This document shows positions 4,273-42,802 of a DNA stretch of 64,000 bases, piece after piece. A model generated the notes under the pieces. It did not search any database. It was not told the origin of the DNA and saw nothing but the letters and a program-made list of their open reading frames with translations. Every line of letters starts with the position of its first letter. Positions within the stretch are counted from its first letter, which is position 1. This stretch comes from a virus, in UHGV virus genome UHGV-0090440. One strand, given 5' to 3'. The translations under genes and the position numbers were made by a program.

Positions 4273-5773
4273 CCAGATCCGGCATTTCGATATCCGCCAG
4301 AACCTGATCTCGGAAAGTTGCCATTTCGGCACCAATATCTTCATTAGCAGGCACATAGTCCACCAGCATAGTGAAGCAGTAGGTATCCCATCGGTCAGGC
4401 GATTTGATGTTTAGCTTTTGCCGCATGTGCTCTTTGCGCATCATCGCCATTTTCCCTTCTTCATTCATTAAAAAGGGGATTTTTGACGCTTGCTCTGCCG
4501 TTTTAGGGTCACTGTCTATCCGCATACGCCCTGACTTTATGGCATCACGCGCCATGATATTTGCGTAGGCACGCTGATTAACAAATCGCTCCCTGTCTTT
4601 GTTCGCAAACATGGGTTTTCCCCACCGAATACGTACCGGGTTCGCACCACGACGCACCAACTGCGCACACGTATCAGAACCAAAACCATCAGCATCAACC
4701 GCGATTGTTATATTCGGGTATTTTTCCGGCGTACATTCGTTATATATGAAGTCAGCAAAGGCCAATGGGTCCATAGTGCCAGGCATCTCCATTACCTTAA
4801 AGTTAACAACGCGCCGCTTATCCCTGTGACCTGATACCTTGCAGATGTTGAGGACCGACTTATCTCGCCCATTACCAACGTCAGCCGTTGCCACCCATCC
4901 CCAGTTTTTCTCCAACAACACCTTGCGGCGAGCAGAGCGATCGCATTCATCACGACCAAGCAAATAGCCGTTAATTTCTCGTGGGAACTGACCAAGCACC
5001 TTGACCATGTACTCAATAGAATCGCGCCCGCCATATTCCAGAAGCTTCTCCTTGATGAATTGTGGTGTGACGAACGGTGATTCTTCCGAGTTAAGAACAA
5101 TTGCTGTCCAGATCCCTTTCGGGTTGTCTGGGGTTTTTGCTCGAGAATGGTGCGAATCGTAGAAATAACCACTTGGCCTTGTTGGCTGGGATAGCATCAA
5201 CATCCGGTTATCTTCTTCAGTAAGAGCACCGGTCATTACGCCGATCGCCTTATCAGATATACCAGATGCTTCATCCAGAATTAGAAGCAAATGTGCCGCG
5301 TGTTCCCCCGCCAGCGCTTCTTCGTTGCCGAGTCGATAACCTTTGCAGAGAACTTCCCAAATCCCCTTACGGGAGCGCTCATAAAACATGGTGTCAGAGA
5401 GGACAAAATAGGTCTGCAACCACCCATGACGCTTAACTGCATTCGCCCAATACTGTTTAACGTATTTGAATACGCCTGTTTTTACCTGGCCTATCTTGTT
5501 AGCAACAATGATGACACGGGCATCGGGGAACAGGATCATAAAAATCAACAGCAACATCGCGGTAAGGGACGACTTCCCCGTTCCGTGTCCGGACGTGACG
5601 GTAGTCCTACTCCCCGTTTCCTGTACGGACTGAATGATCTGCTGCTGCTGCGGGGAGGGGAACATCCCAAAAATATCGACAACAGCCTGGGTAAAGTTGT
5701 AGCGGTATTTGATTACCATATCGCGCCAGCGTGGATCTCTGGTGACGCATTTAACCTTGCGCCCGCCAGCCAT
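4265..5773 (-). CDS. pacB: terminase large subunit (PacB-like)
   Basis: 502 aa; Walker A SGHGTGKSS, Walker B LLILDEAS, C-terminal acidic nuclease-type region (IAVDADGFG); translationally coupled to the upstream small subunit. Confidence 0.85.
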   Translation of the reverse strand: MAGGRKVKCVTRDPRWRDMVIKYRYNFTQAVVDIFGMFPSPQQQQIIQSVQETGSRTTVTSGHGTGKSSLTAMLLLIFMILFPDARVIIVANKIGQVKTGVFKYVKQYWANAVKRHGWLQTYFVLSDTMFYERSRKGIWEVLCKGYRLGNEEALAGEHAAHLLLILDEASGISDKAIGVMTGALTEEDNRMLMLSQPTRPSGYFYDSHHSRAKTPDNPKGIWTAIVLNSEESPFVTPQFIKEKLLEYGGRDSIEYMVKVLGQFPREINGYLLGRDECDRSARRKVLLEKNWGWVATADVGNGRDKSVLNICKVSGHRDKRRVVNFKVMEMPGTMDPLAFADFIYNECTPEKYPNITIAVDADGFGSDTCAQLVRRGANPVRIRWGKPMFANKDRERFVNQRAYANIMARDAIKSGRMRIDSDPKTAEQASKIPFLMNEEGKMAMMRKEHMRQKLNIKSPDRWDTYCFTMLVDYVPANEDIGAEMATFRDQVLADIEMPDLDI

Positions 5774-7137
5774 TAATCATCCTCCGGCGGTTCTATCGCG
5801 ATATCATCATCTCCGGCGTCATACCCTGCATCAGATGCATCATAATCACCGTAAATTTCAGCCGTTGCCGAAGGGTCAATATCCAGCTCTTCGTCGTTGG
5901 CCTCGAATTCTCCAGCTTTACGCTCGCCATTGCGGTCATAATCTCCGCACCCCAATTCTTCAACAATGGTTGCCACATCCGCCCGGCGCTCTGCCAGCCA
6001 TTGCGGATGGTTAGCCTGAAGCGTTGCAAACTCCCTTGCCTCTTTGTCCAGCTGTTCATCATCAACATCATTGACGTCAGAAACAGGTGGTTCGAGAAGA
6101 GTGATAGCTTTCGCCGCGCGCGCCGCGAGGATAGCCGGGACGCTGACCCCCTGGCGCTCGATGTATTCAGCAACACCGATATCATCCAGTTCCTCGCGCT
6201 CACGCATACGTATAGCGGCGGCGATAACTCTGGCTGCGCGTGCGTCAGCGCCAATGCGATATTCAATCTCTTTGCCACGCTGTTCGGCCTGTAGGCGTGC
6301 TAATTCGAGTTTTTCTCTGGCCTCAGCCTCTTTGAATGCTTGCTGGCGAGCGCTCTGACGAAGCTTTTCATCCCCCTGTCGCAGCTTTTGTTCGGACTGA
6401 TATATAGCTGCCAACCTACTGATAAAATCATTCATGTAGTAGGCCGCGTCACTGATTAGACCGAGAAGGCGCTGCCCAGGGTGCATTCCTTCTGGCTCTT
6501 TATCGCCCAAGGTGTCTATTTCCGCCTGTAGACGTTCGGCCTCCTGATCAACAATGCTTTGATACTGAAGTGCGCGCTCTTGCGCCATTTGAATTGCTAA
6601 CCGCAGGTGTTCTTCTGCGCCGTTCTTCATCATATCGCGAGCAACATTCGTAGTTGGCAATGTGGCACGCTGCACAGCACCGTCAGGGATCATTGCAGAA
6701 GATCCCTCAATTTTTGGGGCGCTTTTATCTTCTTCGGGGATCATTTTCGCCATTTTTTCGCGCAATGATCTCCTGACGGATTCTTTTATCTCATTGTTAT
6801 TATTTGAATTATTTTCATGATCCGAAGTTTTCTTTCTCGGCATACTTCGGAAAGAACCTGCGCCCTGCGAATTGTCAATTTCTGTAAATTTTGTTTTTTC
6901 TGCACCCTCTTCCTGCTTTTTTGTTGCTCTTCCTGCCCGTTTTTTTTCAGGTGATTTGGTGCTTTTTTTTGTTGTCTTTACCTGCGACCGCACCTCATTT
7001 TTTTTCATATTGAGATGCTTTCTGGCTGTATTGAAGCTAAGGCCATGCTCCTCACAGTATTCCTTTACAGTGATCCCTTTTTCTTCACGCAACGCTATAA
7101 AGCGGGCGCGGTGCTCCTCCCAATTAACCAGACTCAT
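5773..7137 (-). CDS. pacA: terminase small / pac-recognition subunit (PacA-like)
   Basis: 454 aa; N-terminal HTH-like region, long charged coiled-coil middle, acidic C-terminus; immediately upstream of the large subunit. Confidence 0.6.
   Translation of the reverse strand: MSLVNWEEHRARFIALREEKGITVKEYCEEHGLSFNTARKHLNMKKNEVRSQVKTTKKSTKSPEKKRAGRATKKQEEGAEKTKFTEIDNSQGAGSFRSMPRKKTSDHENNSNNNNEIKESVRRSLREKMAKMIPEEDKSAPKIEGSSAMIPDGAVQRATLPTTNVARDMMKNGAEEHLRLAIQMAQERALQYQSIVDQEAERLQAEIDTLGDKEPEGMHPGQRLLGLISDAAYYMNDFISRLAAIYQSEQKLRQGDEKLRQSARQQAFKEAEAREKLELARLQAEQRGKEIEYRIGADARAARVIAAAIRMREREELDDIGVAEYIERQGVSVPAILAARAAKAITLLEPPVSDVNDVDDEQLDKEAREFATLQANHPQWLAERRADVATIVEELGCGDYDRNGERKAGEFEANDEELDIDPSATAEIYGDYDASDAGYDAGDDDIAIEPPEDD
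6686..6833. other. candidate pac site
   Basis: Five GATC sites in about 150 bp inside the PacA-like gene, four embedded in TGATCY elements in both orientations; P1 pac is a cluster of Dam-methylatable TGATCA/G hexamers inside pacA (recalled). Confidence 0.35.
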
Positions 7138-23558: not shown

Positions 23559-24190
23559 ATCACGCTTCAAGTCACGATCCAATCATTACCGACTATATCA
23601 GCCGTCGATAAATCAACTTCCCGGATCTGGAGTCCATCAGTGTGCCTCCGCAATGCTGGGATTGGTAATATTGCGATACCAGGGATTAGTGTTTGGTTGT
23701 GGGGAAGTAGAGAAACGACCAGTAAGAACACCATACTGATCAGGGATCAGAGAACGGGCTTCTTTTTCGGTTGCGGCAATTGCGAAGTGATCGCAGTGTT
23801 TTTGCAGGGAGTGGAAACGCCAGATGAATTCTGGACGTGAGCAAGGATTGGCATTAACCATAGTTACGGCCTCACTAACAGGTTTAACAACCTGCTACCC
23901 GCTGTCAAACAGGTGGCAGGACGTGACAGGGTTGACAGACTGGCGTTAGTGAAACCAGCAGGCCGAAGCCTCCCCATCACGCCCCACCATAATTCGGGCG
24001 TAACGCGATTTACGGACACAAAAATACCGCAATATCGGAAATCTGCGGTTGTCCGCACTAACATTCAGGCTGTCAAACCTGGTCGCAGAATTTGCTACGA
24101 CGGCATTAATATAAGCCTGAAAACATGGAAGATCAACTAAAAATTTCAGCAATGGATGACTTCAGTCGATGATGCAGATCATACATTCCG

Positions 24191-24220
24191 ATTTAGAAAC
24201 AGGAAATTAATTTTCTAATA
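24191..24220. promoter_or_regulatory. pair of inverted motif copies (ATTTAGAAACAGGA weak; TATTAGAAAATTAA strong on minus)
   Basis: TTAGAAA and TTTCTAA half-sites 8 bp apart in the 700-bp non-coding gap between the CHAP gene and the 320-aa gene. Confidence 0.35.
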
Positions 24221-24274
24221 CAAATCATCGAGCGAGCATTTGCCGATCATTGGGAAGTTTTGTAGGCACACAGG

Positions 24275-25237
24275 TCATCCCCTAAATCCCGCAGGGATTG
24301 ACCAATCCTCCCGGTCAAATTCAGACCGATAGCCACGCTGTTTCATCAGGTCAAAGGCTTCACCAATGGTTGCACACCCCTGGGAGCCAGAATAATCCAT
24401 TGAGAAATCCAGGACACTGGATTGTTTAGGCTTATTCACTGCGGTAGCGGCACTACGTATCCATGCAAATTTTTTTGCCAGCTTTTCAGCGGTACGATAC
24501 AGAGCCTGCCGTTTTGCGTGCCCCTCGTCTGAACGACGCTTTGCAGCTCTCGCTTTTGCCGCCGCCAGGCAGCGGTTGGTATGTTCTTCCCTGATTACTG
24601 GTTTTTTATCCAGCGCCCCATTATCCGCTTGAGAACTATCTGCTGGTGAAGCCTTTGGCTGAACCGCGCATGATCTTTCTCTTCTTTTTGCTATAGAGTG
24701 ACTCTTATTTTCTATTGGCTGTTCATTTTGAACATGGGGGGACTTGTTCAAAATGAACAGGGGGTTCCCAGTTTCAAAAAAATAACGAACCTTTGAAATC
24801 AACTGCTTAACCAGTTTTGTGGCGTTGGCAAATTTGATGCCCTGCTTACCCCCTATCTCCATTGCTGCATGAATGAAGTGGAGAAATTGTGTCGTAAACC
24901 GATATACGTTACACACCTGGGCATTGTTATTCGCTACCTGATGTTGCCTAACAAGCATTCCGCACTTCGTCGCTTCAGCAAATGCCCGGCGTACAGTAGA
25001 AATACTGCGTCCTGTAATCTCGGACATATCAGCATATGAGCGACGGATCATGTATTCATCGGTAGCCCCTGCCAGGTTGGCGAACTCGGCAATAATAGCG
25101 CTATGTGAAGGGGAAAGAAGACCGCTATGACGAGCAAAAAAACTCAACTGATGACCTTTGATTTTTTTGTGGTATTCAGTGTTGTTTTTATACTCAGAAG
25201 TGTTGAAAGTTACTGAAACTGAATTTAAAATATTCAT
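24275..25237 (-). CDS. HTH-containing protein with basic C-terminal half; candidate replication or regulatory protein
   Basis: 320 aa; probable HTH (MSEITGRSISTVRRAFAEATKCGML), Lys/Arg-rich C-terminal region; coding sequence carries two 15-bp palindromes. Confidence 0.55.
   Translation of the reverse strand: MNILNSVSVTFNTSEYKNNTEYHKKIKGHQLSFFARHSGLLSPSHSAIIAEFANLAGATDEYMIRRSYADMSEITGRSISTVRRAFAEATKCGMLVRQHQVANNNAQVCNVYRFTTQFLHFIHAAMEIGGKQGIKFANATKLVKQLISKVRYFFETGNPLFILNKSPHVQNEQPIENKSHSIAKRRERSCAVQPKASPADSSQADNGALDKKPVIREEHTNRCLAAAKARAAKRRSDEGHAKRQALYRTAEKLAKKFAWIRSAATAVNKPKQSSVLDFSMDYSGSQGCATIGEAFDLMKQRGYRSEFDREDWSIPAGFRG
24720..24764. repeat. tandem pair of palindromes TGTTCA-N3-TGAACA each followed by a G-run
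   Basis: TGTTCATTTTGAACAtgggggg (24720-24741) and TGTTCAAAATGAACAggggg (24745-24764) inside the 320-aa ORF. Confidence 0.45.
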
Positions 25238-25300
25238 CAGATAGTTCCGTGAAAAAATCTATCTACCGTATAAATCTATGCCAGTGGATTTATACACCCA

Positions 25301-25332
25301 AAAGCCGCTTCTCAGCGGCTTTTGCTTTTTTT
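25301..25332. terminator. intrinsic terminator-like hairpin
   Basis: AAAGCCGC-TTCTCA-GCGGCTTT followed by TGCTTTTTTT on the plus strand; separates the 332-aa and 320-aa genes. Confidence 0.4.
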
Positions 25333-25410
25333 GGCAGTCGCTACCGGAGCAGTGACCGCGATCCTACTCGATCACATCGGACAGAATCAACAGTGTATAT
25401 AAATACACTA

Positions 25411-25424
25411 TGTTAGAAATTTAA
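25411..25424 (+). promoter_or_regulatory. recurrent 14-bp motif site (TGTTAGAAATTTAA)
   Basis: Identical 14-mer to the site at 1760-1773. Confidence 0.4.
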
Positions 25425-25437
25425 TTTCATTCTGCGG

Positions 25438-26436
25438 TTATGCCCGTCGTGAAACGAAGAGTAATGGGGTAGTATTTTTGCTCTCCTTCGGCGATAACTC
25501 CGGCTCTTTCTTGCCTGATATCGGCAAGCCATAAGTCGCATTTGCCCCCAGTGATTCAAGCATCGCAGCCACTATGCGAGCATCATCTTCAGACTGCATA
25601 CGGCAGAGCGCCCGGCGCTGTTCTGCGCTAATAAAAACAGGCATTTCCTGGATAGCGTCACGCAAAATCCGGCGGCATTGCTTTGCATTTTCCCCCTGGC
25701 TTTCCATCATCGCTGTTTGAGTGCGCAGCTTATCTCGAAGCTGTATGTTTTCCACTTCAAGGAGCATCAATTCTGACTCAAGGGCTTCACGCTGTGCTGA
25801 CTCGAAAATAGCCTGCTGATTCTTCATTGCTGAAAAGTGGTGAACAAGATCCGTAGCCGCGTTATCGGTAAAACCTTGTTCGATAAGTGCCGCATGAATA
25901 GCCGCGTCGCGCTCTTCTGCTGATTCCAGCATCAGGCTTTTCTTGTCCAGACTGATATAGTTAGGCACAGTTACGTAATCAAAGCCGTGAAAAGACTTTA
26001 CCAGGGATACAGATGAATCTGGGCCAGATGTAGCCCATGACCAACCACCAGCACCTGAATTAATCATTCCCTGTACAATACGCCCGGTGTCTGTATCCAG
26101 TATTTCCTGCGTATGGGTAACAATGCCGTTGTCGTCAATCGAAATGTCGATAGTCCTGTTTGATGGCACGTTCTCCAATACAACAGGTTTCCCATCAACC
26201 ATCACAACAGAGACTTCCGGCAGGTTCAGGCTTTTCGTTTTGTTATAGTGCATCGCCCGGCGACCATGACCGTAATAGCCATACATCTCACCAAGTGCGA
26301 TACGCTCTTTTGTTTCTGGCGAGTTGAATGTGTCTCGCACCGACTGAATAACGTAATTTCGGTTGTTCTGCGGTGTGTGTTTGCGGATTTTCTCTACCAG
26401 GGAGAAGCGATCCGTAACAGTGTTCAGTGATTGCAT
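25438..26436 (-). CDS. virion morphogenesis protein (prohead protease or scaffold candidate)
   Basis: 332 aa directly downstream of the portal candidate; C-terminal coiled coil. Function inferred from gene order. Confidence 0.35.
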   Translation of the reverse strand: MQSLNTVTDRFSLVEKIRKHTPQNNRNYVIQSVRDTFNSPETKERIALGEMYGYYGHGRRAMHYNKTKSLNLPEVSVVMVDGKPVVLENVPSNRTIDISIDDNGIVTHTQEILDTDTGRIVQGMINSGAGGWSWATSGPDSSVSLVKSFHGFDYVTVPNYISLDKKSLMLESAEERDAAIHAALIEQGFTDNAATDLVHHFSAMKNQQAIFESAQREALESELMLLEVENIQLRDKLRTQTAMMESQGENAKQCRRILRDAIQEMPVFISAEQRRALCRMQSEDDARIVAAMLESLGANATYGLPISGKKEPELSPKESKNTTPLLFVSRRA

Positions 26437-41956: not shown

Positions 41957-42802
41957 TTAAACAGGTTGAAGGTGGTAATCCAAAGGCCACGCATCGAGTG
42001 GGGTTACATCAAGATGTAATTGCTTTTCTGCCGTTCGGTTCGGTATGGCGTTAAGAGAAATATTGTCTACCTGGCAGGAGGTATCACTACGGGATAGCAT
42101 ATCAGCCATACTCTCAGTAACATAAACACCTTCAATTACCGAAACATCCGTAGACAAGCAATTTAGTATTTCTGCCACTTCAGGGAATACAGCACTAAGC
42201 CGAAACGAGACGCCATCAAAAACAATATGCAATGGCAACAAAGGGGCTATTACTGTTTCGAAGTCAGATAACAATTTCTGCACAGCGGCTTCTTTATCCT
42301 GCTCTCCATATGAGCGATATAGCTTGTTCTGATCAACAACGACCAGCCCCCTTGATGTCAGGAAGAACTCACCGAATTGAGCCTGTGCCGTAGGTATTTC
42401 TATTTCGGTCGCAAAATATGAACCATAGGGGTGTTTTTCTATATTTACAGGTGCATACAGCGGTTCCCAACTAACTGGAATACAACCGAATTCACGCCAA
42501 AATGTCTGCTCAATAGGCAAGATAGTGCCTTTAAAGTGCACTTCATCTAAACGTTGCGCCAGCAGCATTGGCCTACGGTCCTTATCTTTTTCAGTGATAA
42601 CGAAAAAACGCCCGTATTCAGCAATGCGGGCATCCATATCCTCACTGTCCATAGTGAAGAAGGATTTTCTGTTACTTATTCTTGTTAATATTGGTTCTAC
42701 TGCCTCATTCCAGACATCCTGTAAAGCGTCTATAAATGCACTCCAGAGATGTGAATCCTGTTTTACTTTAGTTAATCGTTCCTTAAGCCAATTATCTTTC
42801 AT
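41957..42802 (-). CDS. baseplate-associated protein candidate
   Basis: 281-aa ORF between the baseplate J-like gene and the fibre module. Confidence 0.4.
   Translation of the reverse strand: MKDNWLKERLTKVKQDSHLWSAFIDALQDVWNEAVEPILTRISNRKSFFTMDSEDMDARIAEYGRFFVITEKDKDRRPMLLAQRLDEVHFKGTILPIEQTFWREFGCIPVSWEPLYAPVNIEKHPYGSYFATEIEIPTAQAQFGEFFLTSRGLVVVDQNKLYRSYGEQDKEAAVQKLLSDFETVIAPLLPLHIVFDGVSFRLSAVFPEVAEILNCLSTDVSVIEGVYVTESMADMLSRSDTSCQVDNISLNAIPNRTAEKQLHLDVTPLDAWPLDYHLQPV

Follow-up and report, generated by a model that had tools for sequence, protein, structure and literature searches.

Phage P1 RepL acts at the origin oriL, which lies inside the repL gene itself, and, as stated in 2023, neither the precise sequence of oriL nor the mode of action of RepL is known (Huan, Brown and Wang, 2023; PMC9948254). 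Here we describe a related locus, the minus-strand open reading frame (ORF) at positions 24275–25237 of the virus genome UHGV-0090440, analyzed as a stretch of 64,000 nt (further, the window). A first-pass annotation had noticed two tandem palindromes in this ORF and, recalling P1 oriL, suggested an internal origin or an operator. We find it likely that the ORF encodes the RepL-type lytic initiator of a D6-like P1-family phage-plasmid, and that the palindromes are a part of its own oriL inside the gene. The suggestion of an internal origin thus gains support from RepL homology, from conserved architecture and from experiments on the P1 homologue. Neither the gene nor the concept of an internal origin is new, and the by-product of our analysis is a predicted RepL recognition element.

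In plasmid assays with the P1 system (PMC9948254), 11 synonymous changes in the 43-bp A/T-rich tract AT2 (nucleotides ~495–540 of P1 repL) abolish RepL-driven amplification, whereas amplification persists when the IHF/AT1 region or two DnaA boxes are changed, these sites being dispensable. Truncated non-coding fragments retaining AT2 were amplified in trans. The smallest active one, T5 (87 bp), gives full trans amplification; according to the primers in Supplementary Table 3 of the same study, it starts with ‘cccctccccctgtcaggatgacg’ and runs from ‘cccctccccctgtcaggatgacgtgg’ through AT2 to ‘gatcagtttccggcggtgccgg’. When these primers are mapped on P1 repL, T5 is seen to keep AT2 together with the tract-proximal one of two dyad-symmetric sites (dyads) and to drop the distal one. 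P1 RepL/oriL has found wide use, in P1/PAC (P1-derived artificial chromosome) cloning vectors, for the inducible amplification of copy number, in amplifiers of biosensor signals and in CRISPR ‘tape’ recorders.

The repL gene and its product

BLASTP aligns the ORF product with P1 RepL over essentially the full length (query residues 28–320, P1 residues 20–281) at 29% identity with E 1e-28, the C-terminal IPAGFRG being common to both proteins, and the match to PHROG 2418 has E 7e-130. The ORF corresponds to orf20 of phage D6, annotated as ‘lytic replication protein; similar to P1 gene repL’. Precomputed assignments to PF26868 (Phage_P1_RepL) exist for cluster P0001 (97% identical, 1423 member sequences) and for all relatives; they come from the cluster and the relatives and are not a score of the window protein itself. 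None of the NCBIfam models matches the window protein or P1 RepL. Given homology over the whole protein, the ORF belongs to the P1 RepL family. At the DNA level, the region 23900–25500 has 97.1% identity to Escherichia phage D6, itself a plasmid prophage of the P1 family. Judging by sequence, the window is a D6-like P1-family plasmid prophage as well, and the annotation of 24275–25237 as the lytic replication module of such a phage-plasmid is confirmed.

The helix–turn–helix (HTH) reported in the first-pass annotation scores below threshold in the Pfam scan of the ORF product (HTH_36, E 0.0022, 18.2 bits at a cut-off of 25 bits), but is borne out by AlphaFold, run with a 16-sequence alignment (mean predicted local distance difference test score, pLDDT, 66.6), as a confidently predicted winged-helix domain at residues ~19–157 (pLDDT 85–92). 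In the same model, residues 162–213 (pLDDT <50) form a predicted disordered linker rich in Lys and Arg, followed by a long helix at residues 217–265 and a small C-terminal part with the conserved W-IP-GFRG motif. The dyads and the adjoining A/T tract occupy codons ~160–188, that is, the DNA encoding the start of this linker, and since the encoded linker is predicted to be disordered, its DNA can tolerate constraint at the DNA level. Search of the PDB by sequence with the family profile yields only insignificant matches to MarR/GntR-like HTH proteins (E 0.28–0.38). MarR-type winged-helix proteins bind dyads as dimers, and dimeric binding of this type would be compatible with two 6-bp arms separated by 3 nt, a fit to the modelled fold that is not evidence of binding.

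Other replication proteins were compared as well. The product has a match to phrog_391, ‘replication initiation O-like’ (E 7.5e-8). Homology to lambda O was rejected, as hhalign gives a probability of 0.9% for the RepL profile against lambda O; the Pfam scan of the ORF product has no match to Phage_rep_O at E ≤ 1. The same scan gives no match to PF05732, the RepL of Firmicute plasmids, which has only the name and the status of an HTH replication protein in common with the ORF product and is a different family, and none to Rep_3. Iteron initiators (Rep_3/RepA: P1 RepA/oriR, pSC101, F RepE) are similar in having a winged helix and repeated sites beside an A/T-rich unwinding element. However, they use multiple direct iterons beside the gene for copy-number control, whereas the only repeats at our locus are two internal dyads, and its role would be in lytic amplification.

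Paired dyads beside an A/T-rich tract

Each of the two motifs inside the ORF (~codons 160–173) consists of 6-bp inverted arms around a non-palindromic 3-nt centre, TGTTCA-N3-TGAACA, and hence is not the perfect 15-bp palindrome described previously, while the start-to-start distance of 25 bp and the G5–6 run accompanying each motif were described correctly. On the plus strand, the proximal dyad is followed by t and then by GGGGGG (24736–24741), and the distal dyad directly by GGGGG (24760–24764); on the coding strand, C6-A and C5, respectively, precede the dyads. A G-quadruplex was rejected, two runs being insufficient. Each 15-mer is the exact reverse complement of the other, so that a 16-nt perfect inverted repeat results (24719–24734 / 24745–24760). 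With the 25-bp spacing, the dyads are read in two different frames, the proximal one being translated as V-Q-N-E-Q and the distal one as L-F-I-L-N.

Single perfect palindromes with 6-bp arms and a 3-nt spacer occur in the window at the chance rate (14, with 15.6 expected analytically and 17.2 ± 4.2 observed in Markov-random sequence). In contrast, two same-arm palindromes lying within 40 bp of each other were found in 0 of 500 random sequences, and the analytic expectation of such a pair is ~2e-5 per window. The earlier statement that such palindromes are improbable by chance within an ORF therefore does not apply to one palindrome, but applies to the same-arm pair. Exact TGTTCANNNTGAACA is found in the 64 kb only at the two dyads, and the only other sequence in the window with one mismatch to the dyad is TGTTCATCATCAACA at 6053–6067.

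Directly at the proximal dyad lies a 43-nt tract with 70% A+T and 72% purines on the coding strand, where the GC content has a local minimum (0.35–0.38) and the AT skew is strong. This tract can be aligned with GGCAATAAAGAATAAGAAGTCAC...AAAAAACAAAAAGATC of P1 and is the positional and sequence equivalent of P1 AT2, and the alignment to the T5 boundaries makes ~24654–24741 the positional equivalent of the P1 minimal target. The coordinates of these and other features are given in Table 1.

Table 1. Features of the repL locus and of its surroundings (window coordinates; strand is given by +, – or a dot).
Feature	Position	Strand	Comment
repL homologue, 320 aa	24275–25237	–	ORF; D6 orf20; P1 RepL match; PHROG 2418
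Proposed D6-type oriL core	24654–24764	–	Two C-run/dyad units, A/T tract, GATC and ~18 nt; boundaries approximate
GATC (Dam site)	24672–24675	.	At the end of the A/T tract; window sequence
43-nt A/T-rich tract CCAATAGAAAATAAGAGTCACTCTATAGCAAAAAGAAGAGAAA	24676–24718	–	Purine-rich on the coding strand; candidate DNA-unwinding element
Proximal dyad, TGTTCATTTTGAACA = tgttcattttgaaca on the plus strand; candidate RepL-dimer site 2	24720–24734	.	Coding strand TGTTCA-AAA-TGAACA; adjoins the A/T tract; corresponds in position to the P1 dyad that T5 retains
Distal dyad, TGTTCAAAATGAACA = tgttcaaaatgaaca on the plus strand; candidate RepL-dimer site 1	24745–24759	.	Coding strand TGTTCA-TTT-TGAACA; farther from the A/T tract; arms invariant in 25 D6-like genes
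icd-like ORF	23637–23861	–	Directly downstream of repL, same strand, with c4 and a1b1
C4 antisense RNA	23909–23994	–	Rfam RF01695, 68.8 bits
a1b1 target element of C4 antisense RNA	24062–24114	–	Rfam RF03163
15-mer copy 1, AGTGNATTTATANAC	25283–25297	+	Intergenic region upstream of repL; between possible –35 (TTGGGT) and –10 (TAGATT), minus strand
15-mer copy 2	25395–25409	–	Orientation opposite to that of copy 1; a short way beyond the pro stop
15-mer copy 3	42728–42742	–	Exact copy

The locus agrees with P1 RepL/oriL in protein homology over the full length, in the location of the proposed origin in the initiator gene, in being carried by a P1-family phage-plasmid, in two units comprised of a C-run and a dyad followed by a 43-nt A-rich tract ending with GATC, and in the position of these elements in the gene, with the proximal dyad in the same frame. 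It differs in the low protein identity mentioned above, in the half-site (TGTTCA, or 7-N3-7 as CTGTTCA...TGAACAG, versus P1 TGTCA), in both dyads being perfect rather than imperfect, and in the spacing of 25 instead of 24 bp, so that the distal dyad of the window is in another frame. Moreover, P1 has the DnaA box TTATCCACA beside the dyads and the window has none. No exact DnaA box TTATNCACA was found in or near the gene, and sequences with one mismatch are no more frequent than expected by chance (57 versus 61); thus, boxes adjoining the candidate unwinding element, as in DnaA-dependent origins, are not seen here, which agrees with the dispensability of the P1 DnaA boxes.

A similar layout is seen in phage lambda, where dyad-symmetric sites are followed by a purine-rich A/T tract (...ACACAAAAGACACTATTACAAAAGAAAAAAGAAAAGATTATTCG) in the middle of the initiator gene. 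The ori-lambda stretch lies between the N-terminal DNA-binding and the C-terminal domains of lambda O, and our locus likewise has dyad sites and an A/T tract in linker-coding DNA of an initiator gene. Still, lambda has four sites instead of two, and these are iterons of roughly 18 bp with a different sequence instead of 6-N3-6 dyads. The C-terminal domain of lambda O recruits a helicase loader (lambda P–DnaB), and no counterpart of lambda P was identified for the ORF product. With homology to lambda O rejected, the likeness is that of design, the two systems working alike under the preferred reading, rather than demonstrated ancestry. The lambda tract after the iterons (L094, 520–570, ACACAAAAGACAC...ACAAAAGAAAAAAGAAAAGA) also resembles, in sequence and composition, the tract of the third clade of RepL genes described below (GGACAAAAGAAAAGAAGAC; L026, L085–L089).

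The order of events that we propose is as follows. Upon derepression, the gene would be transcribed and RepL made; RepL dimers would then bind both dyads (CTGTTCA-N3-TGAACAG type) via the N-terminal winged-helix domain. This binding, possibly aided by transcription through the site, would open the adjoining tract, and host replisome components would load at the opened tract, resulting in theta replication. Three elements of this scheme, the binding of the dyads by RepL dimers, the role of the tract as the unwinding element in this phage and the way in which the helicase is recruited, are those that we infer.

Conservation of the dyads among RepL lineages

RepL genes were gathered from viral contigs, genomes and assemblies and aligned on the proximal dyad, with 14 representatives selected. 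The scan of genome contigs retrieved only two P1-like loci, and that of the phage collection, only P1-like phages and D6; plasmid matches from Pantoea, Vibrio, Serratia and Xenorhabdus, available as summary counts, were left out of the comparison. In all recovered lineages the dyads occupy the same position in the gene and are directly followed by a purine-rich A/T tract of ~43 nt. Each lineage has two dyads 24–25 bp apart (L093 has one) with the TCA-N3-TGA core. The proximal core T-CA-N-NNT-GA is invariant in 13 of the 14 representatives, the only deviation being C for T (CGA) in L089, while the half-sites vary between the lineages and the 3-nt spacers vary freely. The tracts after the dyads are A-rich and purine-rich across lineages (ACAAAAGAAAAGAAGAC..., GCCAATAGAAAATAAGAG..., GGCAATAAAGAATAAGAAG...). 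GATC closes the tract in seven of the 14 representatives (window, D6, L025, L085, P1, L090 and L092) and is not found at the tract end in L026, L086–L089, L091 and L093; the P1 motif GATCTTTTTGTTT has been described (PMC9948254).

The D6-like lineage, with 24 close genes including those of the window and D6, has C5–6 and then TGTTCA-N3-TGAACA, twice, at a distance of 25 bp, the distal spacer being TTT or AAT and the proximal one AAA. L025, with 64% amino acid identity, retains the D6-type arms with spacers AAA and TGA. In L088, CTGCTCA-TGG-TGAACAG is present twice as a perfect 24-bp direct repeat. The third clade, from Enterobacter, Klebsiella, Raoultella and a metagenome, has CTGATCA-N3-TGATCAG and CTGATCA-N3-TGATCGG 24 bp apart, with spacers GGG, CCC, TCG, TGA, GCA, TGC and TTC and with one CGATC arm each in L089 and L026. 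In P1 the sites are C5-ATGTCAAAATGATA and C5TC5-TGTCAGGATGACG, 24 bp apart and both imperfect, and the aligned region of P1 repL reads CCCCC-ATGTCAAAATGATA-CCCCCTCCCCC-TGTCAGGATGACG, directly followed by AT2. On the P1 side, representatives L090–L093 from other plasmid contexts have a degenerate distal dyad; the proximal one is perfect CTGTCA-AAA-TGACAG in L091 and L093, TGTCA-AAA-TGACA in L092 and AGTCA-AAA-TGACA in L090. L093 (P0027, gene at 1501–2328) has a single, perfect dyad CTGTCAAAATGACAG before the A/T tract, on a 5.8-kb assembly contig where a repeat collapse is possible; such a layout agrees with the sufficiency of a single dyad in the plasmid assay with P1.

The pattern of variation within the D6-like genes points to the DNA level. 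Among 25 such genes, 0 of 24 arm positions are variable, compared to five of six spacer positions and 37% of sites gene-wide, the distal spacer being TTT, AAT or AAA between invariant arms. The window and L025 have 69% nucleotide identity, and the probability that all 24 arm positions would be identical is ~1.4e-4. The T in front of CA falls on the third position of a codon and is invariant, even though five different amino acids (V, A, D, C or S) are encoded there, and the spacer changes freely alter amino acids (Q/H; N, D, G, A, P, S). Across the dyad and tract region, nucleotide identity exceeds amino acid identity, e.g., 0.69 versus 0.20 in the comparison with L085. Invariant arms, free spacers, two reading frames and constraint at third-codon positions together indicate that the constraint acts on DNA.

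This makes it barely credible that the palindromes are a by-product of coding, reflecting a repeated peptide or chance, with no function as DNA. It is true that single palindromes are at the chance rate and that lineages with the 24-bp spacing encode a repeated peptide (RSDQxDQ / RSDHxD, PPCQND / SPCQDD). But the D6-like arms are read in two frames, third-codon positions stay invariant while residues change, spacers change amino acids freely next to arms that do not vary, and the same-arm pair is not expected by chance.

As half-sites differ among lineages of closely related enterobacterial hosts, the protein reading them is most likely phage-encoded rather than a shared host factor, with RepL as the obvious candidate. 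We lean slightly towards a general form of this reading, in which the TCA-N3-TGA dyad pair is the RepL recognition element and the oriL core in P1 and all relatives, with the half-sites (TGTTCA, TGATCA, TGCTCA, TGTCA) co-varying with the recognition-helix region of the protein (GRSIS / NTSEG / GYSQS; R versus V/L at position 83). The predicted element would take two forms, CTG[N]TCA-N3-TGA[N]CAG in the D6-like lineage, L088 and the third clade, and CTGTCA-N3-TGACAG on the P1 side. The 17-bp forms were also compared with the LexA box, whose consensus is CTG-N10-CAG, and this candidate was rejected, as their CTG-N11-CAG spacing does not fit. No description of a D6-type oriL or of the dyads as RepL sites was found in the literature searched; an earlier one is possible, the P1 papers of 1989–1996 and the P1 and D6 genome papers lying outside the search. 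If RepL does read the dyads in this way, the initiators and origins of the RepL lineages would form pairs that are orthogonal by nature, and the design of lambda O/ori-lambda would have been reinvented independently. If the dyads and the tract are indeed oriL, the minimal origin would be defined, its location in linker-coding DNA would be explained, and orthogonal RepL/oriL pairs would be available for synthetic biology.

Several observations weigh against the dyads being RepL sites. The dyad symmetry fits hairpin or cruciform models equally well as the binding of a dimer. Foldseek comparison with the PDB retrieves MarR/ArsR/TFE-type winged helices (best E 4.5e-3), weak and generic matches that assign no specific initiator fold to the model. 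The G/C runs noticed at the dyads are not a universal feature and were rejected as such, since the third clade has CCGGT at this place. The P1 dyads are imperfect (TGTCA..TGATA, TGTCA..TGACG), with the distal one dispensable in the plasmid assay, and they themselves were never mutated (PMC9948254). Finally, a C/G-rich sequence precedes AT2, and the authors of the P1 study could not tell whether RepL binds this sequence or AT2 (PMC9948254).

The last point also leaves room for origin elements that are not read by RepL as duplex DNA, but are bound by a host protein or act as a hairpin, cruciform or transcript fold providing a priming or loading signal, with RepL acting on the A/T tract or on host proteins. 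The 16-bp perfect inverted repeat of the window indeed folds as single-stranded DNA (–16.9 kcal/mol, z = –5.9), and the third-clade half-sites TGATCA contain GATC, the target of Dam and SeqA. We nevertheless find this rather unlikely, as the 16-bp complementarity is not conserved (the D6 spacers are AAT and AAA, and only the 6-bp arms are kept), asymmetries of the arms in L088 and P1 would produce mismatches in a hairpin, and the half-sites differ among lineages with common enterobacterial hosts, which does not suit a host factor. The 16-bp extended inverted repeat as a functional unit was rejected, since most D6-like genes, including that of D6, have non-complementary spacers.

A third possibility, also named in the first-pass annotation, is an autoregulatory operator only, at which RepL or another phage repressor would block or attenuate transcription of repL and c4-icd with no direct role in initiation. 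Dyads recognized by a winged-helix protein are what operators typically look like, and, as the c4/icd immunity genes directly follow repL on its strand, a roadblock would have regulatory consequences. On the other hand, in every lineage recovered the dyads lie directly against the A/T tract, whose P1 equivalent is required in cis for replication; a promoter-less non-coding P1 fragment with the proximal dyad and AT2 suffices for amplification; and no promoter-like site is found at the dyads, while operators normally overlap promoters. An operator without an origin role is thus quite improbable. Many initiators autoregulate via origin sites, and regulation from the dyads would be compatible with the preferred reading of them as a part of oriL.

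Upstream region and gene neighbourhood

The gene order around repL is that of D6, portal-pro-repL-c4-icd, followed by a gene for a CHAP-type hydrolase on the opposite strand and a giant darB-like gene. In P1 the order is c4-icd-ant-kilA-repL, so that P1 repL is downstream of kilA, while repL of the window lies between pro and c4-icd. A difference from D6 is observed at ~23560–23640, where ~830 bp of D6 (L001, ~4906–5735), carrying orf18 (Roi-like anti-repressor) and the 5′ part of orf17, are missing from the window, the junction being at a short TCCAT repeat. As this stretch includes orf18, the window has c4 and icd with no anti-repressor downstream of them. The P1-side homologues L090–L093 are found outside the P1/D6 gene order, with Rep3_N, zeta-toxin and RecA-dependent-nuclease genes as neighbours, and these differing flanks indicate that the repL/oriL module moves between plasmid backbones.

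The 15-mer AGTGNATTTATANAC, present in the intergenic region upstream of repL, has three exact copies in the window (Table 1). With up to two mismatches, eight matches are found versus 1.46 expected, and none of 100 shuffles reaches eight. We consider this 15-mer a candidate operator of the element's own repressor, which may control repL. P1-type C1 operators (ATTGCTCTAATAAATTT, ≤3 mismatches) are absent from the window, so any repression uses another operator. A hairpin with an 11-bp stem, CAAAAGCCGCT...AGCGGCTTTTG, located at 25299–25324 between pro and repL with an A-run and a T-run at its flanks, resembles an intrinsic terminator acting in both directions; this implies that repL would have its own promoter downstream of the hairpin.

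Two more inverted repeats are situated inside repL. One, a perfect long-range repeat of 14 nt with arms at 24352–24365 and 24644–24657 (CAAAGGCTTCACCA / TGGTGAAGCCTTTG), has an arm shortly past the A/T tract. Among 25 D6-like genes, 18 carry it without mismatches and the other seven with two to eight of them; it was treated as a chance occurrence and is probably not selected. The other is formed at 24285–24299 by codons for the conserved C-terminal IP(A/P/S)GFRG as the hairpin AATCCC-TGC-GGGATT. Similar hairpins are seen at the 3′ ends of L026 and L085–L089, with stems of 8–10 bp in other lineages, and are absent or weak in P1-like genes and L025. Its codons change in a compensatory manner, Pro CCT being found with Arg AGG, and Ser TCG with Arg CGA, and it may serve as a terminator or an RNA-stability element.

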